IMG/VR virus record: IMGVR_UViG_3300021426_000006
Location: 39,223-103,222 of that record
Strand: one strand, 5' to 3'
Source of the DNA: a virus
Taxonomy: Duplodnaviria > Caudoviricetes
DNA: 64,000 bases
In this document: positions 39,984-61,983 of the stretch, piece by piece
Position numbering within the stretch: position 1 is the first letter of the stretch
Layout: each line of letters begins with the position of its first letter
Program-made: the position numbers and the translations under genes
Notes under the pieces: generated by a model
Seen by the model: the letters and a program-made list of their open reading frames with translations, nothing else
Databases searched by the model: none
What the model was told of the DNA's origin: nothing

Positions 39984-40120
39984 CTAGCGCGTGATGCGTG
40001 AAGTACGTGAATTGTTTTAGTGAAGATGTTATATTAATTCTGTTTTCATCTATTTTTACTAACATGAGTGTATTATTACTCCACAGCGGTGGAGAGGCCC
40101 TCACAGCGGTGAGGGCTGCT

Positions 40121-40192
40121 GGTCCATTCGTCTATCGGTTAGGACGAGAGATTTTCATTCTCTAAAGAGCAGTTCGACTCTGCTATGGACTA
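40121..40192 (+). tRNA. tRNA-Glu(TTC)
   Basis: GGTCCAT/ATGGACT acceptor; AGAGA-TT TTC AT-TCTCT. Confidence 0.92.
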
Positions 40193-40193
40193 C

Positions 40194-40463
40194 ATGTATA
40201 GAGCCGGAACATTGGTTACATTACGCGATGGAAACGTGTATCGCACAAGCAGAAAAACAGTATGCGTGTGTGAGTATTGTATTGACTATTACAAGAAGCA
40301 CAATTTGAGAAAGCCATGTAGTATATTTGGAGATAAACCTCGGCCATTTGGAGACAAATGGTGGCTTCTCAATAATGAAAAATGTGCAGAAATGTATGGT
40401 GAATATCAATTTCCAAAACAGGTCTTTTCCAAGTCTTCCTCAAAGACTGGATGTAAACTATAA
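40194..40463 (+). CDS. small Cys-rich protein
   Basis: Start moved to 40194 to clear the tRNA; MYRAGTLVTLRDGNVY...CVCEYC. Confidence 0.6.
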   Translation: MYRAGTLVTLRDGNVYRTSRKTVCVCEYCIDYYKKHNLRKPCSIFGDKPRPFGDKWWLLNNEKCAEMYGEYQFPKQVFSKSSSKTGCKL

Positions 40464-40493
40464 GTTATTAATCCTTTTAAACGTTATCAAAAC

Positions 40494-41036
40494 ATGAGAG
40501 GAAACAAATTTCGAAACCTTAAACGGTTTTTAGGAGGCTATTTTGCCCTCCTTGTTGTCATGATCTGTGCAGTTATAGGGTTGCACAGTTGTGACAAGGT
40601 GAACGCCGTTTGTTCATCAAATGGCGTAGACAGTGTGTATGTAACTGAGTGTATCAAAGCTACTGCAAATCCAACCTTTACTTCACTTACAGAGGTGAAA
40701 GTAGCTCAAAAGCAGCTTGCTGAGAAATACTCAGTGGACGAGGTGTTCTTGAACATGCCCGACAACATTTTAAACAACGTTGTAAACGTGTGTTTAAACA
40801 AGAATACTGTCATTACAAAAACAGATATTGTAAACGAATATCGAGCGAACAAGGATGTATACGATAATCTTGATTCGCAACCGACATCCGCTAATAACAA
40901 CACTGTAAAAAAAGACACTGTCAAAGAGGGACAGCGAAAGCCTACTGCGGGAAAGGTGTCCTATCGATATGAAATGGACACGGTAGAAGGAACTCCAAAA
41001 CGTGTATTAGTAAAAGAAGAAAGAGTGTATGAGTAA
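40494..41036 (+). CDS. putative membrane-anchored protein or lipoprotein
   Basis: Hydrophobic segment ending LHSC. Confidence 0.7.
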   Translation: MRGNKFRNLKRFLGGYFALLVVMICAVIGLHSCDKVNAVCSSNGVDSVYVTECIKATANPTFTSLTEVKVAQKQLAEKYSVDEVFLNMPDNILNNVVNVCLNKNTVITKTDIVNEYRANKDVYDNLDSQPTSANNNTVKKDTVKEGQRKPTAGKVSYRYEMDTVEGTPKRVLVKEERVYE

Positions 41037-41529
41037 TAACGCACTTGTTCTCCAGTGGAAAGGAGAACTTCTACCAGATTATTTAACGCAGAAAATCGCG
41101 GAACTACTAATTGTAAATAGAATATGCATCCCAGAGATGTTGACTATCAAGTACGTCGATGAAGAAAGTATTGCAAAAATACTTATTCGCGACGCTGCTC
41201 AAAGTACTGTAGTAGTTAAGAACACCAGTGATGATGAGGAGGCAATTAAAAATGCTGTAATCTATATTGGCGAGCGATTTAAAGAATCTCTATCAAGTGC
41301 AAACAAGCACGGAGACGCTTTAATGTTCGCTATAGAATTATTAGATGCTGCAATCGTTGCCAAACGAAGTATATCATTCACTGGGGTAGGATCTGATAAC
41401 GAGCTGTTAGCAGCTATAAAGATTCTATCGAAAACGACCGGAGTGATACCTTCCGTACTTGCGAAGAAGTATCATTTTTCTCAGAAAATCGTAGACGTGA
41501 TAAAAGAAGTATATAACAAAGTATTTTAA
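41029..41529 (+). CDS. hypothetical protein (166 aa)
   Basis: Intact overlap-coupled ORF. Confidence 0.75.
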   Translation: MSNNALVLQWKGELLPDYLTQKIAELLIVNRICIPEMLTIKYVDEESIAKILIRDAAQSTVVVKNTSDDEEAIKNAVIYIGERFKESLSSANKHGDALMFAIELLDAAIVAKRSISFTGVGSDNELLAAIKILSKTTGVIPSVLAKKYHFSQKIVDVIKEVYNKVF

Positions 41530-41721
41530 CTATGTGCCACGGAAACAAAATAAGGTCTGGAAAAACTATTCGTTTTAATCCAAAGAAAGGAGAAGAACGA
41601 GAAGTAACACCTTATAAAAGGGAAAAATACAAATTCTGCATCCGTTCTTACGAAGAATAAAACACCTGTCAGTGCAGGTATAATTAACATAGTTTATAAA
41701 CATTAAAAAACCGTTATCAAA

Positions 41722-42369
41722 ATGGGAAAAGAAAAAGAAACAAACAAGCCTGTTGCCATTACTGTTGACAACGTAGTAGAAGAAGCAAAAAAGGGTAACA
41801 CCATGACGACGGACCTTTGCTCCAAGATGAAGGCCGAGTTGAAGGACGAGAAAGACAAGCGTATTATACGCGAAGTAAAATCACGTTACACGAAGATTGC
41901 CTACAATGTAGGCATGGGCCTAGTTCATGTGCGTAAGTCGCGCCTGAGAGACGATATTGCTCTGTACAATATTCGTCAGCAAGGCCGTCTACAGAGATTT
42001 CTCTGTGGCTTCGAAGTTACCGAACAAGTAATAAATGAATTCGCCAAGACTCCTGACGACATCCTGGAGTTGGAAACTCTCGATGAGAAGAAGTCAGTAC
42101 TGAAGCTGAAGGTTCTCAAAGAGGATGGAAAGACTCGCGAGGAGAAGGAGTTTAAGGTCGGCGATAGCGTTCCTGCGCTAATCGACTTCACAGAGTTCGA
42201 CAAAGCTCTCATCAAGCTGAATGAGAAGCTTAAGAACAAAGTGAAAGAAGTCGAAGACAAGTTCAGGGATGAAGTCAAGGTAATTCAGCAGGCTGCCGGT
42301 GAATACTGGCGTTCTGACTGGGCTTACGATATCCGTATTATCACTGACAACGGAATCGATCGAGTCTAA
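41722..42369 (+). CDS. hypothetical protein (215 aa)
   Basis: Intact ORF with TTATCAAAATG leader; directly upstream of the hairpin array. Confidence 0.8.
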   Translation: MGKEKETNKPVAITVDNVVEEAKKGNTMTTDLCSKMKAELKDEKDKRIIREVKSRYTKIAYNVGMGLVHVRKSRLRDDIALYNIRQQGRLQRFLCGFEVTEQVINEFAKTPDDILELETLDEKKSVLKLKVLKEDGKTREEKEFKVGDSVPALIDFTEFDKALIKLNEKLKNKVKEVEDKFRDEVKVIQQAAGEYWRSDWAYDIRIITDNGIDRV

Positions 42370-42402
42370 GACTATTAATTATAGTTAAAGAACACATCAT
42401 CC

Positions 42403-42794
42403 GTAAGATTCGAGCCTTGAGCCAATATCTTACAAACCAAGAGAAAGCAGACTACGTTATGGAGTATAGAAAGTATTTACAGCAGAAATTTGGCATTGCG
42501 CCACGATATTTCAGCTGATACAGGTCTATCGGGGATCGACACTCGCAATCTCTAACAGTAGAATTAACTACACATAGTTCGAGCCTTGAGCCAATACTAT
42601 GAGGGTGACAAGCCCGACTTCACGGGTTATAATATGAAGTCATTTGATCAAAAATCGTGATTTGTGGAGAGCCTTGAGCCCACTGGTAAATATGAGCACC
42701 TAAGTGACTTGGTTAAAGTCCAGTGCACAATGATTTCAAGAATGCAGATATGACCTATTTCCGAGCCTTGAGCCAGTATTTAGACAATCATATC
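42403..42794 (+). ncRNA. array of four hairpins presenting an identical GAGCCTTGAGCC loop (candidate decoy sRNA)
   Basis: 12-mer at 42412, 42581, 42669 and 42763; closing stems differ in sequence but pair: GTAAGAT/ATCTTAC, CATAGT/ACTATG, GTGG/CCAC, GATATGA/TCATATC. Confidence 0.75.
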
Positions 42795-42929
42795 AACTTG
42801 TTTAAGGCGAAATAAAAGCTGTTTTAAGCGTTTTCAAAGCTTAAGTGGATTAGCTACCCACAAGAGTAGAGAAAACGTCTTAGAATGGCTTAAAATAACC
42901 TTAAATCGAATGTTTTGACTGATCATCAG

Positions 42930-42980
42930 AACGTTCACAACACTTAGAGTATGAAACGTTCACAACACTTAGAGTATGAA
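42930..42980 (+). repeat. perfect 25-bp tandem duplication
   Basis: AACGTTCACAACACTTAGAGTATGA x2. Confidence 0.9.
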
Positions 42981-43137
42981 AAGAATCGTTTTAGCAAAAT
43001 TTGAAGTAGATGATGATCCAAATGTAGATCATTTACCAGAATATCAGCGTTCGTATACAAAATACCAAGCTGAAATGCGTACTAAGAAGATTTTAGAGCT
43101 TGTGACAAAAGAAGCTTGTGAATTTTCAATCTCTTAA
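42976..43137 (+). CDS. small hypothetical protein (53 aa)
   Basis: MKRIVLAKFEVDDDP; starts in the second repeat copy. Confidence 0.5.
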   Translation: MKRIVLAKFEVDDDPNVDHLPEYQRSYTKYQAEMRTKKILELVTKEACEFSIS

Positions 43138-43141
43138 GAAA

Positions 43142-43443
43142 TCTTAGCGTGTCCCAGGAGAAGCTGTTGGACGGCGGTTCGATTCCGCCCAGGTCCACGG
43201 ATACTGTTCGCTGGTCAGATGCCATAAATTCAAAACCAGCATAAGGGGGAGGACTAGGTGTAGGCTAAACATTGCGCATACCCCCAGTCAGGGCCTGACT
43301 GGATTAGACAGCAGTGGAAAGTAAGACAGTCGAAAGACAAGCGCTTTGATATAAATCTAAACGACAACAATAATGTTGTTGACTACACGGGCCTCAAGGA
43401 GGCAGCATGAAGTCGGTGTACAGGCTACCAAAGTGCCTGTGTC
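43142..43443 (+). ncRNA. ssrA: circularly permuted (two-piece) tmRNA
   Basis: The 3' piece (GCTGTTGGAC GGCGG-TTCGATT-CCGCC CAGGTCC A, ending 43197) lies upstream of the 5' piece (GGGCCTGACTGGATTAGACAGC, starting 43291); acceptor stem has G3.U70; tag frame 43363-43410 DNNNVVDYTGLKEAA*. Confidence 0.88.
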
Positions 43444-43498
43444 GAGTGAGTTAAACTGGGCGTATTGTACGCGCTGGGTTCGAATCCCAGACTCACTC
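43444..43498 (+). ncRNA. D-armless tRNA-like element
   Basis: GAGTGAGT/ACTCACTC stem, CTGGG-TTCGAAT-CCCAG T-arm, small GCGTA-TTG-TACGC hairpin. Confidence 0.6.
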
Positions 43499-43615
43499 CT
43501 ATGCGGATGGTAGCAGTACTGGCCAGACCTACCGTAAAGAAGCAAAACTGACGGACACATCTGCAGAAAGTTTCCACTTTTCTCCGGCCAGAGAAGTACG
43601 TATATGTGGAAACGA

Positions 43616-43686
43616 TGGACTATAGTGTAATGGTAACACACAAGATTTTGGTTCTTGTATTCTGAGTTCGAATCTCAGTGGTCCAA
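43616..43686 (+). tRNA. tRNA-Gln(TTG)
   Basis: TGGACTA/TGGTCCA acceptor; CAAGA-TT TTG GT-TCTTG; CTGAG-TTCGAAT-CTCAG. Confidence 0.92.
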
Positions 43687-43703
43687 CAAAATCATAAGCA
43701 AAT

Positions 43704-44201
43704 ATGGGAAAAACAACTGGATACAAAGGAATGCTACGGGACAGATGTCCAACAGTAGTAAATTATGCGCTTAAATGGCAAAAAGCTAAAGAGCGTTGGA
43801 TTGATCATGCTTATGCCAACTTCATAAAAATATACTGTGACAAAGAAGAAAGAAAAAATGCCACACGTATAATTCTAGGAATTGCAAAATTCTATAGAAA
43901 TTTTGATTTTGACAAAAGCATAGATTGGGAAAATTTGACACCTGAAGAAACTATTTATTGGAAAAGAGTATCTTCGTGGGTTGAATGGTTCATGAAAAAA
44001 TACGCATATATAGAAAATGCGTATAAAATCTCTCGACAAAATGGCAAGGATGAGTTCTCAATAAAAGTAGAAATTATCCAAGGTTATTTAAGCCAATTAT
44101 TACCAAAAGAAAATACAACTGAAAAAGAAAAACAAGCTTATTATGATTATGTAGATAAACTTGTAGATTTTCTAATCAATTGTTTTGAAAATCGTATCTA
44201 G
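43704..44201 (+). CDS. hypothetical protein (165 aa)
   Basis: Intact ORF; ends TAG. Confidence 0.75.
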   Translation: MGKTTGYKGMLRDRCPTVVNYALKWQKAKERWIDHAYANFIKIYCDKEERKNATRIILGIAKFYRNFDFDKSIDWENLTPEETIYWKRVSSWVEWFMKKYAYIENAYKISRQNGKDEFSIKVEIIQGYLSQLLPKENTTEKEKQAYYDYVDKLVDFLINCFENRI

Positions 44202-44214
44202 ATTAAAAGGGATT

Positions 44215-44589
44215 ATGCTCAATGTATTTTCCGATAGTAAGCTGAAGATGTCTGAACAAATTCAGGCACTTCAAAAATGTGCAGGCAGTAGTCATACAAG
44301 ATTATTGTTTGCTGGACCAGAAGATGAATCGTTATATATGCTAAAACCTGGCGTAATTGATATACTTGATTACATAAATCGAGCAATATTATTTCAGTTG
44401 CCAAGAGTAAAAAGCTGTTTCAATATTCAATGGATATTTGTCAGAATACGTATAGCTACAAACCTGCTCAACGCACAAGTAGATTCTGGAACCATGCCAA
44501 AAGAAATAGCAATAGCGTATCATGAACGGATGACATCACGAATAAGGGAAATTCTTGGAAAAATATATACTGAGGATTTACCTTTTTAG
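44215..44589 (+). CDS. hypothetical protein with SSB-like tail (TEDLPF)
   Basis: Likely ATG 44215; ends TAG. Confidence 0.65.
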   Translation: MLNVFSDSKLKMSEQIQALQKCAGSSHTRLLFAGPEDESLYMLKPGVIDILDYINRAILFQLPRVKSCFNIQWIFVRIRIATNLLNAQVDSGTMPKEIAIAYHERMTSRIREILGKIYTEDLPF

Positions 44590-44715
44590 CCCTGAAAACC
44601 TAATCTGGATTGGTATTCCAGCAGGGCACAATACAGCTAGTGTCTGTTATATCTCGGAAGAGGTTAATAACCACTCGGTAGTGTACTCTATCGTTACTTT
44701 TTTATTTGTTTGATT

Positions 44716-45273
44716 ATGAAATCTCCAAGAATAACATCTGAAGAGGTTGGGATAATCAAAAGAGCTCAAGCAGGTGATGAATCTGCTTTTAATGCACTAT
44801 TCTATCGCTACAAAGGATTCGTAGAAAATCTACTATTCCAGTACATAAAAGATATGGACGAAGCGAAAGACGTGACGAACATTGTGTTCCTCAAAGTGCA
44901 TGATAAACTCTCAATGTTCACAGCTTATGAATCTTTTGGAGGATGGCTGCGAATACTAACAAATCGAACTGCAATCGATTATTTACGAGAAATGAAAAAC
45001 AAAAGCACAGTGCTTGGAGATTCTGATAGTAGACTGCCATCAGATGAAACAAGTGGATCTGCAGAAGACGATCTAGTCAATCGTATGACGTATGATCAAA
45101 TACTAGCTGAGTTTGACAAGTTTCCTGAAACCACTTGTAAGGTTTCAAAACTATTCTATGTGAATAATATGACTGTAGAACAGATTAGTGAAAAGCTGAA
45201 TGTCCCAACTGGAACTATTAAGTCAATGTTATCAAGGACACGACGCAAGATTAAAAAAAAGTTAAATATTTAA
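44716..45273 (+). CDS. ECF-type RNA polymerase sigma factor
   Basis: AQAGDESAFNALF, DEAKDV, region 2 FGGWLRILTNRTAIDYLR, region 4 EQISEKLNVPTGTIKSMLSRTR. Confidence 0.9.
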   Translation: MKSPRITSEEVGIIKRAQAGDESAFNALFYRYKGFVENLLFQYIKDMDEAKDVTNIVFLKVHDKLSMFTAYESFGGWLRILTNRTAIDYLREMKNKSTVLGDSDSRLPSDETSGSAEDDLVNRMTYDQILAEFDKFPETTCKVSKLFYVNNMTVEQISEKLNVPTGTIKSMLSRTRRKIKKKLNI

Positions 45274-45278
45274 AAAAG

Positions 45279-45671
45279 ATGGTCTTACTCTGGTTTATTC
45301 TTGGAATACTTTTGATTTTCGCTATAGCCCGCTATAACGAAAGCAACATGTTATTCTGGACACTTCTGTTTTCCCTTATTATAGGGTTTGCAGGTGCCAA
45401 GATGATGTTAGACATCAATCATGGCAATGAACAAAAGAGTAATATCAGCAACGTTCAGGCAAACCCCACACAGGTTCCAACGACTCCGCTAAGTGCAATA
45501 TTATATTGCGCAACAGAGGAATTAGTTGAATCGAATAATGTGGTGACAGCACAAAAACCTGTGGGTCAGGGTATAATGCCTGCTGCAAACGAAACTGATG
45601 TTATTCTTAGTGAGATCTTCGGGAGGACCCGAGATCAACCACAAATTAAAAAGTTCTTTAACACATCGTGA
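45279..45671 (+). CDS. membrane protein with two N-terminal TM helices
   Basis: Two hydrophobic segments; directly follows the sigma gene. Confidence 0.75.
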   Translation: MVLLWFILGILLIFAIARYNESNMLFWTLLFSLIIGFAGAKMMLDINHGNEQKSNISNVQANPTQVPTTPLSAILYCATEELVESNNVVTAQKPVGQGIMPAANETDVILSEIFGRTRDQPQIKKFFNTS

Positions 45672-45749
45672 ATACTAATGAACTTTAAAACGGCATACAG
45701 TATTGTAGTCTAGCCAGCTACTAGTATTAATTTTTAACCTATTATCAAA

Positions 45750-47180
45750 ATGGGAAAGAACAAAACCGCTGCAAAGAGTGCAGCACAGGCAGCAGCACAG
45801 CAGGCTGCTCCATCTAACAAGACTAATAAGCAGGAGACTGCTGATAAGTCACAAGTTGCAGTAATTCAGTTAGGAGATCTTGACAAGTTGGCTCAAGCAC
45901 GGGCTCTTTCTGGTCTTGATCCAAATCACACTGTAGACCTGTTGAAGATGATGCACGAAACGTATCGTACAGATCCTAACGCAGCTACAAAGCTTAACAT
46001 TTCACAGGAAACTGTTGATAAGATCAACAGAATTACTGCTATTGGTCAAGTTGCAGTTCTGACCAATGAAATTATGATTGCACAGACGCCGTTTGCAATA
46101 TCAATGCGCGTAAATCAGCTCGAAGCACTCAAGGAGGTAGCTCCTATGGTCGGTGTTGTTATCGACACAACAAAGGCTTTGCCTTCACCGAGTGCAGAAG
46201 GTGTTGTAGAACTGCCCAGTACAGCAGTTAAGATTTCTAAGGAGTCTCAAGAGACTTTGAAGAAAGAACAGGCTGCGGCAAAGGAAAAGGTAGAACTCGA
46301 TCCTACAAAGATCGAGAATGTAGAGGAATTGAAGAAATCTCTCCTGAACATCCTGGTAAAGGGTAACGGAAGCGAAGGTCTTTATGACAAGCTTTCTACG
46401 GCTGTCAACTTCTACAAAGCATACCTTGACATAAATGCGGGCAAGGAGAAGGATCCTGAAGCTGCTCGTAAGGCAATTGAATCCAAAAGTCGCGTTGATC
46501 TTTTGTCTGAAATTGCTGATATGCTGGGTAAGTGTACCTTCACCCTTGGCGGTGTTTCCAAGTTCATGTTCGAAAGCACTCAGCGTACGAAGAGCCCTGT
46601 TACAGCCTTCTGTACCCTCCGAGAGGCAAGTTTGAACAAGAAGACTGGTATGCCTCAAATAGAGGACCAGATGGTGGCTGATATTGTCAAGGTTCTTCAT
46701 CGTTGGCACGCCAATACAGAAATTGCGGCAACCAACGAAGCCATTAAGGGTTTCGAGAGAGACATTGAGATCTTGAAGAAGGACGAGAAGAAGAACGCCA
46801 AAGGCATTGAAGACGGTAAGAAGAAGATTGAGAACGCCAAGAACCACATCAAGGAGATTGAACAGGTTGTAAACTATGTCAACCTTCCTGATCGCGAAAC
46901 CGTAGACAACTTCTCGACCAACTACACCGATAACAAGGCAGAAGGCTTTAAGTTAGCCCGTATGACAGGATCTAAGATTCTGGATACGTACTTCAAGGGT
47001 ATCGATGTATCGAAGATCAAGAAGGAGAGCTTGGTGCACAATCTTCAGCAATATGTTGGAGTGATTACCAACATGTTCTTGCCGCCGCTTAACCGGATTG
47101 AAGATTACAGTGAAGCAAACATCACTGAATTCGAGATGGTTGAGGCCGAGGATAACAACTCTTCTGAAAAAAACGAGTAA
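45750..47180 (+). CDS. hypothetical protein (476 aa) with coiled coil
   Basis: Long intact ORF with TTATCAAAATG leader. Confidence 0.85.
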   Translation: MGKNKTAAKSAAQAAAQQAAPSNKTNKQETADKSQVAVIQLGDLDKLAQARALSGLDPNHTVDLLKMMHETYRTDPNAATKLNISQETVDKINRITAIGQVAVLTNEIMIAQTPFAISMRVNQLEALKEVAPMVGVVIDTTKALPSPSAEGVVELPSTAVKISKESQETLKKEQAAAKEKVELDPTKIENVEELKKSLLNILVKGNGSEGLYDKLSTAVNFYKAYLDINAGKEKDPEAARKAIESKSRVDLLSEIADMLGKCTFTLGGVSKFMFESTQRTKSPVTAFCTLREASLNKKTGMPQIEDQMVADIVKVLHRWHANTEIAATNEAIKGFERDIEILKKDEKKNAKGIEDGKKKIENAKNHIKEIEQVVNYVNLPDRETVDNFSTNYTDNKAEGFKLARMTGSKILDTYFKGIDVSKIKKESLVHNLQQYVGVITNMFLPPLNRIEDYSEANITEFEMVEAEDNNSSEKNE

Positions 47181-47305
47181 AGGTCAGTGAATACAAGCCG
47201 AACTTCATTGGCCGACTGCGCGACAAATGGCACGATTATGTGTCAGTTGAAGTAATAAGATTAAAACGGCAACTCGGTTATAAACTTATCAAGTAGTATC
47301 AAACT

Positions 47306-47803
47306 ATGAGAAAAGTAACAACTGTTCTGTGCAGTATAGCTTTCATGATTTCTGGAATCATGATGGCTATAACTGCCTCAGATCCGTCACCTGGTAACAG
47401 TTATAAAACTGTCAACGCAGCAACAATTCAACAGATGTATATTCCTACATTTCCAGAGTTGAAAGCTGACACAGGTAGGATCGATTTATCCGAGGATCTC
47501 TTGCGAGACCTCGCCAAGAAAAAAGGAGTTCTGGATACTGTCTATATCACCAAGACAGACACCATTAAAGAACAGGTAACTAAGGTGAAGTGGCGTAGGA
47601 ATCCTGCTCCTGCGTCAGTAGTAAAAAGAGACACCATCCAGGTGCCCGTTTACTATCTAGCAACACAGGTAGAGATAAAGGAAGACTCTATGGGTCAATG
47701 CATACCAGTTTACGAATTGCGCAAAGTAGATGAATTATGCACCGAAACAAAAACTTCCTCTGTAGAGGGCACCAACGAGTGTCACATTAAGGGAGACGAC
47801 TGA
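47306..47803 (+). CDS. secreted or membrane-anchored hypothetical protein
   Basis: N-terminal signal-like segment; DTVY/DTI low-complexity motifs. Confidence 0.75.
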   Translation: MRKVTTVLCSIAFMISGIMMAITASDPSPGNSYKTVNAATIQQMYIPTFPELKADTGRIDLSEDLLRDLAKKKGVLDTVYITKTDTIKEQVTKVKWRRNPAPASVVKRDTIQVPVYYLATQVEIKEDSMGQCIPVYELRKVDELCTETKTSSVEGTNECHIKGDD

Positions 47804-47819
47804 GCTTTGAGCTCGGTCT

Positions 47820-50120
47820 CCCTTAAAACAGGTAAGCACATTTCAGGTGGGTCTCATTAGCCCAGGTGCGAATAGTACAACTTGATCCGAGAATATGTTA
47901 GCCTTCTCAAAAGGTGAGAAACTCAAAAGGTAGGATGAAATGCTGTAAGTTCTATGCGTACTACATAGTAGAAAAGCTTATAGTAAGAGGGTAAAGTGCA
48001 TGTATCAAACCCTTCGATCCACGAGAACCGTCTGGAGGTGGAATAATCGTAAAAGGCACATAAGTCTCAAGAAGAGCAAAACTGAACCGTATCGATAGAT
48101 CTACATTCAAGGATACATAGAGGTAGAATAACGAAACACGAGTTGAAACCATCTATATGCTAATCGAGTAGAAGTAATTCTTACCTAAAAGAATTATTAC
48201 CGTGACAGCACATGGCATGACTGTCGGACTGGCAATCCTTTGCGGTATAACCGTAACGCAAAGCCAAAAATAGATGGGATGTATCAACACAATAGCTGTA
48301 GGATGGTGCTTCAAGAAATCCAAGTCTTGTGTAAGAGTCCGAAAAACTACAAAATGATAGCAAGATGATATGAAAATTAGCAACCTTTTGACAAAATACA
48401 TAATGATTAGTATTTGGGAAAGGGTCTGGGAATGAGGTGGATGCTGAATTATATCGTGAGGGGTATACTCACGAGGCGTACCGTAACTACGTCGCATTGA
48501 AGTCCTTGCCGTTCGATTCGAGGATATTTTCAAAAGAGCTTGTGAAAGTAAAGTGACCGCCAGGCCTTTGTCGTTCATGCGGTATATAAAAGTAGAATGA
48601 CCACCGGGGTAGGGCAGCCCCCGAGTTCCTGAGAAGGTTCTATTAAACTGGAGGATGCGCGAGTGAAGTCCGCGATGAAAGACTATTCTAAACACAAACA
48701 TGCTGGTAAGCGAGCAATGAGAGTGATAAATCAAATGTTAGCAAGAGAAAATGCTACTAACATTATAGTATGTCTGCTAGAAAGACAAAAAATCTTAATT
48801 GTGGATGCAATCACAATTTTGGTGGTCGATCGGAAGAGTATACACACCAGTATATTTGGATGTCGCTATCAATTTAAAGACGGATAATAGTTCGAAGGTT
48901 TGTCTGTAAGAACTTAGCTGCGTAGTCCCTAAGGTTGGATCTATATACTACGTGCGAACCCTTACTTTCAATTTAGATACTTCTTACAAAAATAAGTCGA
49001 TAATAAAATAGAGAGAATTAACATGTTTAACAAAAATTGATGTCCCCCGATAGCCGTAATAAAAGAAAAAAGTGTGGAAGACTTTAGCTCCCGTTGTATG
49101 GGAAGCAGGTGAGGTCGGGAAGTTCGAGTGCCAACCGTTTCTGAGAAGCAAATAGACAGAATACGAAACGAAACGAAATATAGACAGCAAATCTATATGG
49201 GTGGAAAGTATAAAGTTATATACATTGACGATGCAAGGCAGCTCTAATACAATCTCGAGGTTGTATGAATCCGTAGCCAATTAAACGCAGTGATTAATCG
49301 TATGCGGGTCGTAAGACGCCACGCCTCACTGTCTCTGAGGATTGTGGTAAGCAAGGAAGAGTGGGTGATAAATCTAAATGTATGAGGTGAAATTCCTCCA
49401 GTATTCGAGCACTATAAACAAATGAGGCAAGCACTTGCCAAAAGAAGAAAACAAGCCGTAGGGTCGACGCACTGACACGTCATAAGGACCGTTCGATAAA
49501 GAAACGCACTCCTCGCGTAAAACAATAGTTCTGGAGCTATTGAAACAGGAAACAAGCACGTTTTGTATGTAAGCTGTTAGGCTTGATAAATAATCAGAAA
49601 ACATACAAGTAGTAGATTCACTTTTGTTCGGAAAATACACTAGCGAAGATATTACAAAAATTTTGTGGGGTCCTACGAGCACTAGTTGCGTAAGCAAAAT
49701 TCTGCCAACGGACAAAAAGACACTGGGTTTAGTAAGAAATGAAAGTATTCAGTGCATATTGAAGTATAAATCAATATAAAATTACAATATGAAAGTACTT
49801 GAATGTACAACAACAAAGTTTGCAGTTTTACTTAAATTAGAAGAGTCTTCTGATGATGGGCACGGATGATCCTACCGTTGGATCCCCCTTAAACACTCGA
49901 GTAGGGTTTAAGTAGCCAGAATGAACACTAATGAAAGAAAACAAAAACATTCCTCTCGTAAGCACGGATAAATGATGCGAAAGAATATTCATACAATAAG
50001 ATTAGTTTACGTTGAGCCTTAGAGCCTGTAGACTTTATCTACAAAATGGTTCACCTTCCGCCACAGAAGTGAAGGACAGTAATTAATCTTATCGTTGGTG
50101 GATCAACCACGATATCAAAA
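47820..50120 (+). ncRNA. 2.3-kb ORF-free structured tract, candidate large ncRNA(s)
   Basis: Longest plus-strand track ORF is 74 aa; many short helices; A-rich linkers on plus; the strand is inferred. Confidence 0.55.
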
Positions 50121-50133
50121 AGGATAAGAAAAA

Positions 50134-50781
50134 ATGATCGACGTTAATGTAGAAAGCAAAATTTCTAAAAATTGCCAAATGATTAGTCAGTTTGGCTCTC
50201 GCCTCGGTACACAATTTTATAAGGCAGAAGGCCGTGAAGTATGGCAGGGCGGTAAAGACGGTTTTGAGAACGACAAGAAGGCCATTGCAAATGGTGAAAG
50301 TCAGGCGTTTATCCTGAATCGTTCTCCGCGTAAGTTCCTCGCAAAGAGTCATCGTATCACCGGTACTCAGATCGTAAAGGACGAAATCACCGGTGATGTA
50401 GTAGTTCTGGTAAATCCCGACGGAAAGGGAGGTTACGACTTGTGTCTCCCTATAACGAATGATTTGATTCGTGTAGGTGTCGTGACTCAGGAGGCTGTTG
50501 CCAAGGCTCTTAAGGGAGACGATAACAGCTTCTTCCTCAATGCAGACAATCTTGTTAAGATTCTGAATCATGCCAATGAGGCTGAAGTTCGTAACCTTAC
50601 GGAGCTTCGTGGCCGTATCGACAAGATGATTCAGAATATTCAGGCCGGTATTGCTGAGAACAAGCAGAAGGCTGAGCTCGCAAGCAAGGAGTGGACTGAC
50701 TCCGCAATCAGTCCAGATCTTAGCGATGTAATTAACCACACTGCCACCGGCGTGATTGTGACAAAGTCTTCTGAAGAGTAA
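50134..50781 (+). CDS. hypothetical protein (215 aa)
   Basis: Intact ORF with C-terminal coiled coil. Confidence 0.8.
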   Translation: MIDVNVESKISKNCQMISQFGSRLGTQFYKAEGREVWQGGKDGFENDKKAIANGESQAFILNRSPRKFLAKSHRITGTQIVKDEITGDVVVLVNPDGKGGYDLCLPITNDLIRVGVVTQEAVAKALKGDDNSFFLNADNLVKILNHANEAEVRNLTELRGRIDKMIQNIQAGIAENKQKAELASKEWTDSAISPDLSDVINHTATGVIVTKSSEE

Positions 50782-50783
50782 TC

Positions 50784-51383
50784 ATGAATACAAAGTCCCT
50801 TACTCCAAATTCAATCTCATTGATGCATTATTTAATGCAAAATGAGACGATAGCCAATAAAGTTAAGGCTGCTGGAAAAGAGGGCAAACAGTATGCAATT
50901 TATACGATTGAGGATGATGGAAGTATAATACTTGGCGAAACCAAACATAAGTTTTGGAATCAGCTCATAGGATGTAAATTTGTACTTACATTTGAATCAT
51001 TCGCTACTTGTGTATGGGATGCTCTTGTGGACTTAGCTACAGGTGGCAATCAGGAGGCTCTTCTCCAGGGCCTCAGTAAGGAAGTGTTAGAGAAAGCACA
51101 GCGTGAGAAGGAGTACAACTGGGTCGTTGAAAGATTGGTAGATTGTTTCCGTCATGTATGTAACAATAAAGGTGTCGAGTCGCGTTCCGAGGGACGCTCT
51201 GGGAAGTCTGGCCAGAAGATAGATACTGAAAGAGTTGTAGTACGTGACCGAAATAATTCGCCGGTCGAAATCAATGTTAATATTGGAAACAAACGACGCA
51301 CATTTAGCTTTCCTGACGCAACAGGACAAGCAGATCTTGTTTTAGAAATGGGAGTAGTTGGAGTAACTTGCGAACAGCACTAA
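50784..51383 (+). CDS. hypothetical protein (199 aa)
   Basis: Intact ORF. Confidence 0.8.
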   Translation: MNTKSLTPNSISLMHYLMQNETIANKVKAAGKEGKQYAIYTIEDDGSIILGETKHKFWNQLIGCKFVLTFESFATCVWDALVDLATGGNQEALLQGLSKEVLEKAQREKEYNWVVERLVDCFRHVCNNKGVESRSEGRSGKSGQKIDTERVVVRDRNNSPVEINVNIGNKRRTFSFPDATGQADLVLEMGVVGVTCEQH

Positions 51384-51570
51384 TCGGTTGTGATGCAACT
51401 TGTTTAGACTCCTGAGGGAAATCTAAACGCCTAGTGTTAATTCAATAGTGAAAAACAAAACTATTCTTTAACAAGAACTGTAAAAAAACAAATATATCCT
51501 ATATAGTTATCGAGGTAACTGGGGGGAGAGTTTCGAGGAACTCTCTCCCCGAGGATAATTCTTTAAGCCT

Positions 51571-51765
51571 ATGAAATTGAAAGAATACATCGAAATCCTT
51601 CAGACATTTGATCCAAATGTAGAAGTTCTGAAACAGGAGAAAAAGCAACATGGTCGTAAAATTCTAATTCCGTTAGAAAAACGCGACATTATTCCACCAC
51701 ATGTTCATTTTAAGTACAATAGTACTACAGGACATGAAACTCTCGTAGACTCATTTGTAGTCTAA
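51571..51765 (+). CDS. hypothetical protein (64 aa)
   Basis: MKLKEYIEILQTFDPN; follows the GC hairpin at 51521-51550. Confidence 0.65.
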   Translation: MKLKEYIEILQTFDPNVEVLKQEKKQHGRKILIPLEKRDIIPPHVHFKYNSTTGHETLVDSFVV

Positions 51766-51855
51766 ATTTACACGGGTGTGATTCCCATGTAAATTACTAG
51801 TAGGTATCTCGAATTCGCTTAAACTGAGTATTAACTAAAATCAAATGTTTTATAT

Positions 51856-52395
51856 ATGACAAAATCAATTAAGCTGAATTCAGGTAAAATCATCAACATT
51901 CGTAAGGATATTGATGCAAAGAAGAAAAAATACTGGAAGATCATTCGTACCACAAACTTGCTTTCTAAGAAAGAGGTATCGAATGGATTCCGTACCCATG
52001 ATCTGAAGACTCTCTATAATGAGATAACTCAGATGGCGGAGAAGCTTGTGCTTGTTAAAGGTATGCTGTTTTACCTTAATATGGGTATAACAACATTTGA
52101 CAAAGAGGCTTTTAAAAAGACAAACAACTATAGTATTTTTATGGCATGCGAGATGAAGGAGATTATTGCACAGTTGAAGATGGTGCCTACTCTTGATCCC
52201 AAGACTAAGTCTCAGAAAGGTCTAAAGGCTATTGGTAAGGATGAAGTGTTTACATCGGCAAAGATTGCTGCATTGATTAAAGATCTCCAGCTAAAGGCTA
52301 ATAAGTTTGATGCTGCAATGGAAAAGTTCAATAACGAAACAGAAATTGATATTACTTCTATTTCTGATGAGTTCAAGGAAGATCTCACAGCGTAA
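51856..52395 (+). CDS. hypothetical basic helical protein (179 aa)
   Basis: Intact ORF. Confidence 0.8.
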   Translation: MTKSIKLNSGKIINIRKDIDAKKKKYWKIIRTTNLLSKKEVSNGFRTHDLKTLYNEITQMAEKLVLVKGMLFYLNMGITTFDKEAFKKTNNYSIFMACEMKEIIAQLKMVPTLDPKTKSQKGLKAIGKDEVFTSAKIAALIKDLQLKANKFDAAMEKFNNETEIDITSISDEFKEDLTA

Positions 52396-52450: not shown

Positions 52451-52594
52451 CATGAATAATTTCGAAAAATTCTGTAAAGAAAAAGTAGAAGAAGCGAGAC
52501 GTCGCTACTTCGAAGTTAGGCAAGCTGAAATGTTACTTGCATGGAAAAATCGCTTAAAGCGAAAGTAATTAACCACTCTAAAACCGTTATCAAA

Positions 52595-52975
52595 ATGGAA
52601 AAAGAAGAAAAGATCGTAAAGGTGTACTCAAACAATAGCAAAAAAGCACGCCTAAAGCGACGCAAAAATAAATTTCAACGTATTTGGGACGCTGAAAAGC
52701 AAACTTATGTGAAAGTACGTAAGGCAAAATACCCAGTCTACCCAAAGAAACAGAAGAAAGACTGGAGAGAAGTTGATAAATCTTCTTCGATAGAACGTCG
52801 CCGTAAGTCTACAAAAAAGATCAAGAGTGCACCGGTAATTGCAACTAAGCAAGAACCCGAAGTAAAACAGCAAGTTCGTAAAGAACCTGCACGCGTAAAA
52901 GCAACCACCGTAAGAATAAACGGTGTGAAGCATACGTGGGATAGTAAAACGTTGCGTTATAAAGTAGCAGCATAG
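52595..52975 (+). CDS. very basic protein ending KVAA
   Basis: Start placed at the TTATCAAAATG leader; ends TAG. Confidence 0.75.
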   Translation: MEKEEKIVKVYSNNSKKARLKRRKNKFQRIWDAEKQTYVKVRKAKYPVYPKKQKKDWREVDKSSSIERRRKSTKKIKSAPVIATKQEPEVKQQVRKEPARVKATTVRINGVKHTWDSKTLRYKVAA

Positions 52976-53000
52976 TATTAACTTTTAAATCATTATCAAA

Positions 53001-54005
53001 ATGACTAGTAAGACAAAACTCCTTAAGAAAGGAAAATATACACCAGGTACTGCCACACCTGCACCTGCAAAAAAGGCAGAGAATAACGTTGTTAAGAATA
53101 CAACAAGTACTAAAAATAAGCAACTCAGCCTTAGGAAACAAGCTGAGATACGCTCTCGTGCACGTCGCCAGCGTTCTATGTTGAAGCTTGGAATGAAACA
53201 AGAACTCATAGAAGAGATGTTTGCACAAGAAGACAACCGAATGGTACTTGTACTTTTGAATGGTGCATACACTATTCAAGATGGAACAAAGACTAAAACT
53301 GTGCGTAAGCGCGATGAACACCATAAGGTAGTGTCTGTAGAAACAGTAGAGGTTCCAAACATCTTGCGTGGTTATGAAGCTGCACGTAAGTATGTGGACG
53401 ATCAAAAGCTGCACTTTATGGCTGGACGTACAAATTCTATATGGATACTTAGCGATAAGTATCATGTAGATGACGTAGTAGAAAAACTTAGCATACTTGG
53501 TAGAGTTTCTGTCACAAAGCCGGAAAAGCATACTAATGAAACAGAAAGCGCTCGCCTGAAGAAGGAAAAGAAGACTCCCAAAAAGCCAACGAACAATACT
53601 GCAGAAGTAAAGGCGAAGGCAAAAACAGCACGTAAAGAGGCAAATGCGAACAAGATTAACATGCGCCCATATTATGCCGCTCTTCGTAAAGGTGGTGTGA
53701 GTGAAAGAATAAAGCGCCACAATCCGGATCTGGCCAAAAAGATAGAGGCATGGATAAAAGAAAGAAAAGCTGCAAGTGCGTCCAAAGAAGAAAAGTCGAA
53801 GGAAGTACGTGCTAAGCATAATCAATTAACTTCTTTCGAATCGAAAACAAACAAAAGAGCTCGCAAGGTGATTAAGCATTTAGCAAAAATAGAACGCCGT
53901 AGAGAGCTTGAAAAGAAGTGTGCGGAGAGTAATGCCAAAGAGCGTGCTAAACGCGCTCAGAAGGCTCAAAAACCAGTTCAAACGGAACTTAACATTGCTG
54001 CATAA
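53001..54005 (+). CDS. very basic protein (334 aa) ending NIAA
   Basis: K/R-rich intact ORF. Confidence 0.8.
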   Translation: MTSKTKLLKKGKYTPGTATPAPAKKAENNVVKNTTSTKNKQLSLRKQAEIRSRARRQRSMLKLGMKQELIEEMFAQEDNRMVLVLLNGAYTIQDGTKTKTVRKRDEHHKVVSVETVEVPNILRGYEAARKYVDDQKLHFMAGRTNSIWILSDKYHVDDVVEKLSILGRVSVTKPEKHTNETESARLKKEKKTPKKPTNNTAEVKAKAKTARKEANANKINMRPYYAALRKGGVSERIKRHNPDLAKKIEAWIKERKAASASKEEKSKEVRAKHNQLTSFESKTNKRARKVIKHLAKIERRRELEKKCAESNAKERAKRAQKAQKPVQTELNIAA

Positions 54006-54007
54006 CC

Positions 54008-54724
54008 ATGAAGAACCGTAGAGAACGAGCAAAAGAGGTGCGTAGAAGAAAAGTAGCGCAACTTGCAGCCTATAGTAGGCAATATACCGTTAAGAACTGT
54101 ACAGTTCCTAATATAGAAAGGCATGGTACAGGTGAATGGGATATTCCTGAAGAAGAATATCCGCAGCCTAAAACTCTTCGTAAAAAGTATAAGAAAAAGT
54201 ATTATAAAGATGATGGTACTATTCGTAAGATAGTAACTCATCCTTCCGATTATGATGCTTTTCCTGACCATACTTTTCATCCGAAAGGAAGGGCATGGTA
54301 TATGGAACAGATGGTACAGCATAAAATTGCTAAGTGGGAGAAAAAGAATCCGTGTCCAATCAAGCAAAATGATGGACAGCAGGATTTGTTTGAGCAAGAA
54401 TACTTAGTGCCGTGGAAGGCGGAGCGAGAGCTTGCAATAGAACGTATCAGAGATTTCGTCGTCTCTGTGTATGACAAATTACCGCTTACGGGGCGGTTCC
54501 AAAAATCCGAAAACAAGTTTGTAGAAGAAAATGTAGCCGTTATAAAAGATTTAGGAAACGAAGGTCATCATATAAATGACTTAGATTCTAAGAAATCAAA
54601 ACTGCTCAAAATAGCACAAAAGAAAACAAACGAAACAAAGATAAAACATAAGAATCTCATTTGTACTAATTTAAAAGACCACAAACGTCAAAAAGGTAGG
54701 ATACTCCTACCAAAAGCTGCATAA
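54008..54724 (+). CDS. basic protein (238 aa) ending PKAA, with internal QQDLF
   Basis: Intact ORF. Confidence 0.8.
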   Translation: MKNRRERAKEVRRRKVAQLAAYSRQYTVKNCTVPNIERHGTGEWDIPEEEYPQPKTLRKKYKKKYYKDDGTIRKIVTHPSDYDAFPDHTFHPKGRAWYMEQMVQHKIAKWEKKNPCPIKQNDGQQDLFEQEYLVPWKAERELAIERIRDFVVSVYDKLPLTGRFQKSENKFVEENVAVIKDLGNEGHHINDLDSKKSKLLKIAQKKTNETKIKHKNLICTNLKDHKRQKGRILLPKAA

Positions 54725-54731
54725 TGCAGCA

Positions 54732-54797
54732 GGGAATATGGTAATAGACATGCGACAAACAGCATAATCTATGCGAGGTTCGATTCCTCGCTTCCCA
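54732..54797 (+). ncRNA. tRNA-like element upstream of the polymerase
   Basis: GGGAA/TTCCC stem, CGAGG-TTCGATT-CCTCG T-arm, one irregular internal hairpin. Confidence 0.55.
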
Positions 54798-54825
54798 CTA
54801 GTATTAACTAAAGAACCTTAGAGTC

Positions 54826-56688: not shown

Positions 56689-56717
56689 TAACCACTTGAG
56701 AACCTAGAGTCAGTAAG

Positions 56718-57284
56718 ATGATTATTGAAGTAAACACAAAACTTCTGGATGCATTTCCAGATTTAAATTCAAATCAATTATTGTTCTTAAGTATTGTATT
56801 GGATAAGAATCAACCAAAATATCAAGACGTCCGCAAGATTGTCAGCCTAATCAGCGACGACGAAATACAATATTTAATCTCTCAACAGCTAGTTGCCTCG
56901 ATCGAGAGAGACAACTCAATAACATATCAACCAACGGATAAACTCAAAGTAGCAATAGCCCAGAGCAAAGATTATTTTGATATATTCTATGATATGTATC
57001 CAGTGTACGTGATGCGCGCAGATGGCTCTAAGAGTTATCTACGAGCCAATGTAAACAAATGTCGTCATTTCTTTAACACAAAGTGCGGAAGAAGTTCAGC
57101 TATGGCTGAACATATTATAAAATGCTTAGATTACGAAGTATCTAAACGGATGCGAGAAGGAAGTTTAAGCTATATGATGACTATGTGGAATTGGTTAACG
57201 CGAAGTCAGTGGGAAGCTGTTGAAGACGAGATGCAAGATACTAAAACACAGACAGTAAATTCCTATGGAACAGAACTTATCTAA
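56718..57284 (+). CDS. replication-associated protein (possible initiator or helicase loader)
   Basis: FDIFYDMYP...WLTRSQWE pattern; lies between pol and helicase. Confidence 0.55.
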   Translation: MIIEVNTKLLDAFPDLNSNQLLFLSIVLDKNQPKYQDVRKIVSLISDDEIQYLISQQLVASIERDNSITYQPTDKLKVAIAQSKDYFDIFYDMYPVYVMRADGSKSYLRANVNKCRHFFNTKCGRSSAMAEHIIKCLDYEVSKRMREGSLSYMMTMWNWLTRSQWEAVEDEMQDTKTQTVNSYGTELI

Positions 57285-58188: not shown

Positions 58189-58229
58189 TGCTCAGATGAA
58201 AGTATTAACTAAAAACAAGGCTGAATAAC

Positions 58230-58730: not shown

Positions 58731-58754
58731 TAAATCATAAGAACTATAAGTCAC

Positions 58755-59498: not shown

Positions 59499-59602
59499 AA
59501 ATGATCGAACTACAATGGATGCCTGGTACGTTTGTATCAGATAGAATATTATAGGAATTAAACAGAGAATTTTTAAGAACTATAAGTCAGAAGGAAGAAA
59601 TT

Positions 59603-60334: not shown

Positions 60335-60407
60335 GCGGTCTTAGTTCAGTTGGTAGAACGCTGGTCTCCAAAACCAGTAGTCGGGGGTTCGAATCCTTCA
60401 GATCGCG
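60335..60407 (+). tRNA. tRNA-Trp(CCA)
   Basis: GCGGTCT/AGATCGC acceptor; CTGGT-CT CCA AA-ACCAG. Confidence 0.92.
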
Positions 60408-60430
60408 CAATACAAAAGAGCTTATAAGCC

Positions 60431-61604: not shown

Positions 61605-61983
61605 AGGTAGGGTCAAGAATGCGACAGCAGTCGATGCGTATGGACTCCATTTTAGGAGTAAACTCGAACTCTATACGTATGAAGCTTTTATGAAAGCAGG
61701 AATTCCTGTTAAATATGAGCCAAAGCATTTTACTCTACTCAAATCGTTCGAATTTTTAGGTCAAAAAATAAGACCTATTACATATCTACCAGACTTCGTA
61801 GGACGAGGTTTTATAGTAGAATGTAAAGGTCTTATGGGAGACTCATTTCCTTTACGTTGGAAGCTTTTCAAATATTATTTGTATAAGCATCACGCAAAGA
61901 TAAAACTATATCTTGTGAGAAATCATAAAGATGTAGATAACATGATCCAAGAACTTTTAAGTCAGAGAAAACATGGAAAATAA
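61594..61983 (+). CDS. PD-(D/E)XK endonuclease (T7 endonuclease I/resolvase-like)
   Basis: FRSKLE...YEP...YLPDF...VECKG. Confidence 0.85.
   Translation: MTTKGRVKNATAVDAYGLHFRSKLELYTYEAFMKAGIPVKYEPKHFTLLKSFEFLGQKIRPITYLPDFVGRGFIVECKGLMGDSFPLRWKLFKYYLYKHHAKIKLYLVRNHKDVDNMIQELLSQRKHGK

Follow-up and report, generated by a model that had tools for sequence, protein, structure and literature searches.

The 64,000-nucleotide (nt) stretch of phage DNA analyzed here, called the window, encodes a conserved structured non-coding RNA of about 570 nt on its plus strand. This RNA, referred to as the four-loop RNA, occupies positions 42370-42940, between the stop codon of the open reading frame (ORF) 41722-42369 and the region of a transfer-messenger RNA (tmRNA). 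It displays four copies of a bipartite motif, a motif of the same type is found directly upstream of the start codons of seven genes of the replication module, and the two change together between lineages. It is tentatively proposed, at a little less than an even chance, that the structured RNA presents bipartite sites shared with the replication leaders, that these sites are read by a repressor, and that the RNA competes for it. The fuller picture is put forward with somewhat more reserve: the RNA with its four operator-mimicking loops might buffer a co-evolving, replisome-wide translational repressor and so act as a replication timer in crAss-like (Oafivirinae) phages. The crAss-like phages are among the most abundant gut viruses, and we know of no account of how their gene expression is controlled post-transcriptionally.

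A Conserved Structured RNA with Four Motif Copies

The phage genome is 103,222 bp long with direct terminal repeats, and the window corresponds to positions 39223-103222. The phage is placed in the order Crassvirales, family Suoliviridae, close to the subfamily Oafivirinae, and is a gut crAss-like phage. Relatives of the tract were collected using a 24-nt pattern from its conserved 3' end, which replaced a first broad 15-mer scan of viral contigs that gave mostly chance matches. The pattern identified 41 IMG/VR loci, and together with the window and two GenBank records these make a set of 44 relatives, 38 of them distinct, in which the four-loop RNA can be aligned. The pseudoknot was counted in 34 distinct full-length arrays, and conserved blocks were taken from an alignment of 15 diverse members. 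MAFFT placed the families out of register, and RNAalifold run on these alignments therefore detected no more than the hairpin tips; structures were instead counted by script in sequences anchored on the motif.

A preliminary description of the window had reported four exact copies of a 12-mer in an ORF-free tract. The copies of GAGCCTTGAGCC are indeed found on the plus strand at 42412, 42581, 42669, and 42763, with spacings of 169, 88, and 94 nt, and the tract contains only a 33-amino-acid ORF starting with TTG and a 30-amino-acid ORF starting with GTG. When up to two mismatches are allowed, the window has eight matches to the 12-mer against 2.2 expected, and none of 100 shuffles reaches eight. 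The looser pattern GAGCC-N0-6-GAGCC gives six matches against 0.18 expected, among them GAGCCTTAGAGCC at 50014 and GAGCCAAATAGAGCC at 63019, and across the whole 103-kb genome all five matches to GAGCC-N2-3-GAGCC are on the plus strand. Most of the 44 relatives have four motif copies, about 400, 300, 220, and 130 nt upstream of the 3' anchor.

Each copy had been placed at the apex of a hairpin, and this is true of the first two. Hairpin 1 (42403-42433) has the 7-bp stem GTAAGAT/ATCTTAC and the loop tc-GAGCCTTGAGCC-aat, while hairpin 2 has the 6-bp stem CATAGT/ACTATG with the motif (42581-42592) in its loop and is preceded by the conserved block GAATTAAC, the two together covering 42561-42601. 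The claim did not hold for copies 3 and 4. Copy 3 (42669-42680) follows the conserved block GATCAAA in the segment 42646-42680 and has only a weak local stem, its pairing being limited to GTG(G)/(C)CAC. Copy 4 (42763-42774) has a weak inner stem, which is enclosed by the outer stem GATATGA/TCATATC of hairpin 4 (42747-42794); the conserved block (A)TTTCAAGAATGC precedes this hairpin and resembles a translation-start region.

The stems of the motif hairpins are completely different between relatives. For hairpin 1 the relatives have ACACAGT/ACTGTGT, ACAAATA/TATTTGT, GGGC/GCCC, and TGCGTT/AACGCA, which are unrelated in sequence yet pair, and for hairpin 2 they have CGTAGC/GCTATG, CATAC/GTATG, CGAAC/GTTCG, TCTCATC/GATGAGA, and TATC/GATA. 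The flanks of the motif are complementary overall, with a mean of 3.67 Watson-Crick pairs compared to 2.51 in 200 permutations, of which the highest reached 3.02. Three single-stranded blocks are conserved in the 15-member alignment: GAATTAAC ahead of hairpin 2, GATCAAA ahead of copy 3, and ATATCAAGAATGC ahead of hairpin 4. It was also observed that GATCAAA and ATCAAGAATG (42735-42760, 42644-42680) look like phage translation-start contexts and open mini-ORFs of 3-11 codons, such as ATG-CAG-ATA-TGA in the window and MLNITL followed by a stop in the relative cr7_1.

Between hairpin 2 and copy 3 lies an H-type pseudoknot (42611-42640). Its first stem, S1, is (AG)CCCG/CGGG(TT) and closes the 6-nt loop ACTTCA, and after an A/U linker the second stem, S2, is formed by TGAAGT pairing with this loop. 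The 6-nt loop ends in A and the linker is 5-9 nt of A/U. None of the 34 distinct full-length arrays lacks the pseudoknot, and both of its stems covary. Ten different S2 helices are found, all of them Watson-Crick: ACTTCA/TGAAGT, CCACA/TGTGG, CCCA/TGGG, CCCTA/TAGGG, CTGCA/TGCAG, GTTCA/TGAAC, ACACA/TGTGT, ACCAA/TTGGT, ACTTA/TAAGT, and TCATA/TATGA. In 16 of 16 distinct cases a loop and the downstream segment of its own array can form at least 4 bp, while loops and segments taken from different arrays do so in 30 of 224 combinations. In S1 the pair beside the closing G-C varies between C-G, U.G, and U-A.

Downstream of hairpin 4 the RNA continues with a long conserved 3' hairpin (42796-42905), which shows BLAST conservation to crAss records and has the tip GTGG-attagcta-CCAC, where the pairs covary from GC to AU. 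The terminal hairpin (42908-42936), GAATGTTTTGA-CTGATCA-TCAGAACGTTC, has G.U or U.G at four of its ten pairs in 3-11 of 20 sequences, and because of these four positions it is a plus-strand RNA hairpin and not a perfect DNA palindrome. Read from the opposite strand, the G.U pairs of S1 and of the terminal hairpin would turn into A.C mismatches; the structure is therefore that of a plus-strand RNA. Folding of the whole tract gives z = -3.9. That the tract is a structured plus-strand RNA was accordingly borne out by the pseudoknot covarying in both stems and by the hairpins containing G.U pairs.

Positions 42034-42811 are covered, with 100% identity, by RNA-library contigs that come from two studies and link the upstream ORF to the array. 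The contig from X4 is unbroken over all four copies, and that from X2 over the first two. These data consist of contigs only; they give no ranking of expression, and the lower cover of 51-58 kb was not used as evidence.

No family in Rfam 15 matches the RNA; with the E-value limit set to 10, the one hit in 42330-43000 was a chance match of 12 bits to a tobacco mosaic virus pseudoknot. Over 40000-52000 at E-values up to 1 there is no match to ROOL or GOLLD. The earlier remark that no such system was known from crAss-like phages agrees with Rfam and the searched literature, where no description was found. As judged from sequence comparison, the four-loop RNA is a new, previously undescribed family of conserved structured RNA.

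Bipartite Sites at the Start Codons of Replication Genes

A related motif had been noted at the starts of the replication genes, and seven such sites are present on the sense strand, 0-14 nt upstream of the ATG. The leader of polB, encoding a family-B DNA polymerase, has GAACCTTAGAGTC at 54813-54825, abutting the ATG at 54826. The gene of a replisome-organizer-like protein (56718-57284; some records call it ScpB-like and another a putative replisome organizer) has GAACCTAGAGTC at 56700-56711, 6 nt before the ATG at 56718. The same sequence, GAACTATAAGTC, precedes both the Sak4-like gene (58741-58752, 2 nt before the ATG at 58755) and the SSB-like gene (59577-59588, 14 nt before the ATG at 59603). 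In the primase leader GAGCTTATAAGCC at 60418-60430 abuts the ATG at 60431, the AAA ATPase gene has GAACTTTTAAGTC at 61951-61963, 9 nt before the ATG at 61973, and the last gene of the module has GAGTCATTGAACC at 63784-63796, 1 nt before the ATG at 63798. The flanks of the Sak4 site (TCAT/ATGA) and the primase site (ATACA/TGTAT) can pair, and short stems that include the AUG are possible at polB, Sak4, primase, and the ATPase gene.

In the relatives each array motif consists of a pentamer that is repeated directly after a short, A/U-rich spacer. GAGCC-(TT/TA/TAA/TTA)-GAGCC is found in the window, L072, L155, L161, L080, and cr131_1, GAGCC-TATTA-GAGCC in L103 and L162, and GTGCC-(TT/TTC/TTT/TTA)-GTGCC in L032, L033, and L143, while GTATC-(TTT/TTC/TTA/ATT)-GTATC is found in 28 of the 44 loci. 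The array of L150 is mixed, with GAACC-TTT-GAGTC twice, GAGCC-AT-GAGCC, and GAATC-TT-GAATC. Since GAACC-TTT-GAGTC is of the leader type, array and leader forms are interchangeable. From the pentamer variants the half-site can be written G-W-R-Y-C, and the general motif consists of two such half-sites, which change together, separated by a spacer of 2-5 nt. The spacer can vary by one nt inside a genome, being 2 or 3 nt in the window and 4 or 5 nt in G005.

The strand bias is also seen genome-wide. The pattern GARYC-N2-3-GARYC has forward/reverse counts of 8/2 in the window's own genome (G000), 9/0 in G001, 0/8 in G002, and 0/6 in cr131_1, compared to 0-2 for the reversed-pattern controls. With each genome's own motif the counts are 8/0 in G005 and 7/0 in cr7_1.

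A check proposed in the preliminary description was whether array and leader motifs vary together in related genomes. When orthologous leaders were compared across ten genomes, they were found to change together. Arrays and leaders are both of the GA-type in the window, G001, G007, cr131_1, and G005; cr273_1 has GA-type leaders and, in its genome, GAGCC repeats. In G005 the unusual spacer of 4-5 nt is found in the array as well as in perfect GAGCC...GAGCC sites abutting two ATGs. In the GT-type genomes cr7_1 and G008 a perfect GTATC-N3-GTATC abuts the Sak4 ATG, and the leader of the organizer gene has TTATC-AAC-GTATA in cr7_1 and the spacer TAC in G008. G004 and G006 have arrays with GTGCC, GTACC, and GTGTC, and GTATC-TTA-GTATC abuts their polB ATG. 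When half-sites are counted at most 28 nt upstream of six replication-gene ATGs, the GA-type genomes have 20 GARYC and no GTRYC, compared to two GARYC and nine GTRYC in the GT-type genomes, while eleven control leaders give four GARYC and one GTRYC in both types. In cr109_1, which belongs to the subfamily Loutivirinae, there is neither a leader motif nor a clear array, and this joint absence was counted in favor of the proposed repressor with a competing RNA. The co-variation of RNA and leaders supports a putative lineage-specific RNA-binding regulator.

A Possible Repressor and a Competing RNA

The simplest explanation for the restriction to the sense strand, the position at ribosome-binding sites of single cistrons in packed operons, the flexible spacing, and the display in loops of a covarying RNA is a factor that acts in trans, is specific to the lineage, and reads RNA. 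Such a factor would be a phage-encoded RNA-binding protein, specific to the lineage, that binds the bipartite sites. It would probably be oligomeric, with one subunit or domain for each pentamer, and the direct-repeat geometry suggests head-to-tail subunits or tandem domains. Binding to a leader at positions -13 to -1 relative to the AUG would block initiation and so keep translation down, much as in repression by T4 RegA or the MS2 coat protein. The same protein would be drawn to the four consensus sites of the RNA, and this competition might set the timing or the strength of the shut-off of replisome synthesis. A decoy role for the RNA is plausible.

The preliminary description had proposed a repressor/sponge switch. 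The structured RNA, the motif shared by loops and leaders, and their co-variation stand, while the defined architecture and the non-GGA motif speak against a simple CsrB-like sponge. A number of observations weigh against the proposed competition for a repressor. The copies are usually four, the linkers GAATTAAC, GATCAAA, and ATCAAGAATGC are conserved, and so is the pseudoknot; a defined particle is therefore favored over a simple sponge. The co-variation reflects few independent evolutionary switches, perhaps two or three, because the compared genomes are related to one another, and G003 is discordant, having a GTGCC array together with GA-like leaders of the type GAACA-ATT-AGACA. A strand test on the motif hairpins ended in a tie, with 321 bp whether G.U or A.C was allowed, and a stricter mismatch count gave three GT compared to two AC. 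The RNA-library contigs are not strand-resolved, and they may include DNA carry-over. The predicted pairing of the AUG in ten genomes is 0.50-0.63 in the leaders with the motif compared to 0.37-0.89 in controls, which is no increase. Finally, searches using Pfam, PHROGs, the ESM Atlas, and one AlphaFold model with fold searches did not point out a binder.

The conserved architecture may also be understood by a reverse logic, similar to the feedback known from ribosomal proteins. The protein would then reside mainly in a ribonucleoprotein on this RNA, which would be its primary partner and not a decoy, and the leader sites would be mimics that sense free protein. The particle could be linked to the adjacent tmRNA/tRNA cluster or to the maturation of these RNAs. 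Although considered unlikely, this explanation is kept as a close rival because most relatives have four sites, at conserved positions, as well as conserved linkers and a conserved pseudoknot; the RNA moreover directly adjoins the tmRNA in relatives without a 200-nt insertion. However, there is no evident reason for a tmRNA-linked particle to feed back on replisome genes, it has no known protein partner, and the Rfam tmRNA models end outside the array. The motif might instead be a processing or stability site recognized by an endoribonuclease that is sequence-specific, like T4 RegB; cutting in the leaders would inactivate or mature the replication mRNAs, and cutting in the array would yield small RNAs. 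The sites beside start codons and at the borders of a non-coding tract (47802 and 50014 flank 2.3 kb) would suit such an enzyme, and the tRNA or tRNA-like elements before polB and primase suggest that polycistronic RNAs are processed. The pseudoknot and the long-range stem around copy 4, on the other hand, argue for an intact RNA, the contigs from X4 and X2 run unbroken across four and two copies, respectively, and no RNase family is found among the ORFs scanned against Pfam and PHROGs. Cleavage is held to be improbable.

The same sites could also act in DNA, as iterons or operators for the organizer (56718-57284) or a transcription factor, the array being an origin or a high-affinity operator cluster and the leader sites repressing transcription. 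The fourfold repeat is reminiscent of the lambda origin with its four iterons, the genes concerned are replication genes, and the organizer-like protein carries the annotations mentioned above. Ribbon-helix-helix proteins can read tandem direct repeats of 7-8 bp. This explanation is nevertheless doubtful. The spacer varies within a genome, as described for the window and G005, and from 2 to 5 nt across genomes, the repeats sit in loops of covarying hairpins within a pseudoknotted RNA, and the sites precede single cistrons in tightly packed operons, 0-14 nt from the ATG. Origin iterons are regularly phased direct repeats of about 17-22 bp that are read as double-stranded DNA beside an AT-rich unwinding region, whereas the units here are 12-15 nt with 2-5 nt spacers, are placed 88-169 nt apart in loops of variable inverted repeats, and have a local GC content of about 0.41. 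The cumulative GC skew reaches its minimum near 31-32 kb, at the point where the genes change orientation, and not at the array (42.4 kb), skew being a weak guide in phages. Very improbable is a role as single-stranded DNA signals, either as hairpin promoters for the virion RNA polymerase, similar to those of phage N4, or as primase or ssi priming sites. The motif pentamers resemble T7 primase sites such as GTGTC. The virion RNA polymerase of crAss-like phages, whose promoters are unknown, prefers single-stranded DNA (bioRxiv 10.1101/2020.03.07.982082), which speaks for such signals. Against them, N4-type hairpin promoters have a stem of 5-7 bp and a loop of 3 nt and lie on the template strand upstream of early genes, whereas the loops of the motif hairpins measure about 17 nt; a transcript begun at a site that abuts the ATG would have no space to include the start codon, and the surrounding pseudoknot and the G.U pairs indicate RNA.

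Two further uses of the loops were tried and rejected. Pairing of the loops with other RNAs was dropped since the complements found, one of 7 nt in the tag region of the tmRNA and one of 10 nt in ORF 45750-47180, are within chance and lack a counterpart in cr7_1; there are also no reverse-strand copies of the motif. Mimicry of a T-loop (TTCGAGCC) was dropped since the motif is preceded by two variable bases (tc, aa, ca, ga).

Should repression with a competing RNA be correct, the four-loop RNA would to our knowledge be without a described precedent among bacteriophages as an RNA decoy for a protein, and the GA, GU, and spacer variants would represent a naturally re-programmable recognition code. 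Phage biology would gain a protein-sponge RNA, and the engineering of Bacteroidales might gain an orthogonal RNA-protein pair. The cis-element is sharply defined and common to the RNA and seven replication-gene leaders, and its natural specificity variants (GAGCC, GUGCC, GUAUC, spacers of 2-5 nt) change together in both. Together, the RNA family, the cis-element, and the variants make the regulator directly testable.

Search for a Binding Protein

Most ORFs in the neighborhood have no match to Pfam or PHROGs above the curated cut-offs. The upstream neighbor of the tract, the 215-amino-acid ORF 41722-42369, had been named as a candidate binder and matches neither database. Another candidate, ORF 50134-50781, was modeled by AlphaFold from a 21-sequence alignment. 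The model, with a predicted local distance difference test score (pLDDT) of 81, has an alpha/beta domain and a 53-residue helix; no Foldseek match was found at E<=0.001 (the best being 0.23), and the VIA matches, with a best Z score of 3.6, were all coiled coils. The leader of this ORF (50035-50133) contains a hairpin that is conserved throughout the ten genomes and shows compensatory changes; it reads ATCGTTGG-TGGATCA-ACCACGAT or, in others of them, TTAATCAATAA, and the invariant ATCAAAAAGGA follows it.

The candidate basic proteins encoded at 52541-54724 gave no match above Pfam's curated cut-off. One of them, the basic 238-amino-acid protein of 54008-54724, has an N-terminal Arg-rich stretch, RRERAKEVRRRKVAQ, which is found only in some GA-type genomes. 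The stretch is reminiscent of the RNA-binding peptides of N proteins. The protein ends in ...GRILLPKAA and its orthologues in ...LPQAA, ...SAAA, and ...MRMAA, resembling an ssrA-like AA degron. ORF 51856-52395 resembles Siphovirus Gp157-like proteins.

The region has no conserved small ORFs, and the Pfam scan found no CsrA domain or CsrA-like protein among the 29 plus-strand ORFs between 40 and 64 kb. A recombinant block in G003 was sought as a pointer to the binder, and no G003 ORF is closer to the GT-type genomes. When it comes to pairwise identities, none of 18 protein families tracks the motif type. The phage sigma factor (44710-45273) was considered as a reader through an ECF-sigma promoter (GAAC...GTC) and rejected: the words are 2-3 nt apart and not about 16, and it is therefore not a reader of the motif as a -35/-10 pair.

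Genomic Context and Other Motif Copies

The immediate downstream neighbor of the four-loop RNA is a circularly permuted (two-piece) tmRNA, called by ARAGORN at 43108-43501 on the plus strand. The Rfam tmRNA model RF04321 matches 43144-43410 with 61.7 bits against a gathering score of 47. The tmRNA model does not cover the array, which is upstream of both the RF04321 and the ARAGORN calls. A tRNA-Gln is also found downstream of the tract, together with the tmRNA. In the window the RNA and the tmRNA are separated by a strain-specific plus-strand insertion of about 200 nt (42937-43139) made up of a tandem 28-mer (GAACGTTCACAACACTTAGAGTATGAAA, twice) followed by a 53-amino-acid ORF (42976-43137). 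In relatives without it the terminal hairpin leads directly to the tmRNA, and an RNA-library contig of a relative joins 42937 to 43140, skipping the insertion. The insertion is judged from these comparisons to be outside the conserved RNA.

A fifth copy of the motif had been reported at 50014, and this is confirmed. GAGCCTTAGAGCC is displayed on the plus strand by the stem AGTTTAC/GTAGACT, which has one U.G pair, and the hairpin (50004-50034) is found about 107 nt upstream of ORF 50134-50781. It is in the same place, with the genome's own motif, in G001, G005, cr7_1, and G008, is degenerate in G007, and is absent in G003, W02, G004, and G006. A further plus-strand hairpin at 47787-47826, TTAAGGGAGAC/GTCTCCCTTAA, has the variant GAGCT-TT-GAGCT (47802-47813) in its loop and is placed at the stop codon of ORF 47306-47803; no counterpart is listed among the six genomes scanned. 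These motif hairpins, at 47802 and 50014, bracket a 2.3-kb tract (47820-50120) without convincing plus-strand genes, over which contigs from a sheep-gut RNA library, derived from a relative, pile up. No Rfam match was found for 47780-50140 at an E-value limit of 10. Inside the exonuclease ORF, GAGCC-AAATA-GAGCC is found at 63019-63033; it is conserved at this place in G001, and as GAGCC-TAATA-GAGCC in G005. This repeat may reflect a coding constraint or an internal site.

Several other leader elements were observed. Before polB (54725-54812) there is a tRNA-like T-arm, GGTTCGATTCC, without an ARAGORN call, and before primase (60335-60408) there is a tRNA-Trp; a T-arm is kept at both polB and primase in relatives. 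This suggests tRNA-type processing of the replication mRNAs. A second leader type, found in the window and all relatives before several non-replication genes, consists of TAGTATTAAC, about 11 nt, and (C)ATTATCAAA followed directly by the ATG. In the window it is located at 40465-40493, 41690-41721, 45715-45749, and 52965-53000, before the ATGs at 40494, 41722, 45750, and 53001, and at polB the bipartite motif takes the place of the ATTATCAAA part. The second leader type may represent a phage promoter whose transcripts have very short leaders or none. A separate leader (58200-58229), kept in all ten genomes, precedes ORF 58230, with AGGCTGAAT(T) right before the ATG.

Comparison with Known Regulatory Systems

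In phi14:2, another crAss-like phage, very abundant early transcripts arise from two intergenic regions, and no element of the present kind was reported (bioRxiv 10.1101/2020.03.07.982082). ROOL and GOLLD are, like the four-loop RNA, large conserved structured phage RNAs from gut or rumen that are found beside tRNA or tmRNA genes. The four-loop RNA is smaller than these, shares its loop motif with mRNA leaders, and has no Rfam match up to an E-value of 10.

The CsrB, RsmZ, and RsmY RNAs, which act with CsrA and RsmA, also repeat a short motif in hairpin loops, and the motif likewise overlaps the ribosome-binding region of target mRNAs. In the phage seven leader sites place the motif at the ribosome-binding site of mRNAs, where it may serve regulation. 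The phage-encoded RNA differs in having a pair of G-W-R-Y-C pentamers and not A(N)GGA/GGA, usually four copies, conserved linkers, and a pseudoknot, and it matches no CsrB/Rsm model in Rfam. TRAP and HutP, ring proteins that bind repeated triplets with spacers of 2-4 nt, resemble the putative regulator in reading direct repeats of a short RNA word with somewhat variable short spacers. Here, however, there are only two words per site, these are pentamers, and no such protein has been identified.

In the T4 RegA regulon and the autogenous operators of gp43 and gp32, a translational repressor of the phage acts on replication-gene mRNAs as a set, through sites that overlap the start codon, which resembles the arrangement proposed here. 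RegA sites are loose and AU-rich and have no known competing RNA, while the phage sites are a sharp bipartite repeat that co-evolves between lineages. The coat protein-replicase operators of MS2, Qbeta, and PP7 are hairpins with a loop that is recognized sequence-specifically and a 3' arm that can hold the AUG, as do the potential stems at Sak4 (TCAT/ATGA) and primase (ATACA/TGTAT). The RNA phages have one operator per genome, whereas the loops of the four-loop RNA are about 17 nt with two half-sites, and pairing of the AUG is not above that of controls. The locus belongs to none of the CsrB/Rsm, T4 RegA, and RNA-phage coat-operator families. A protein-binding regulatory RNA with matching mRNA operators is a known type of system; the RNA family found here is new.

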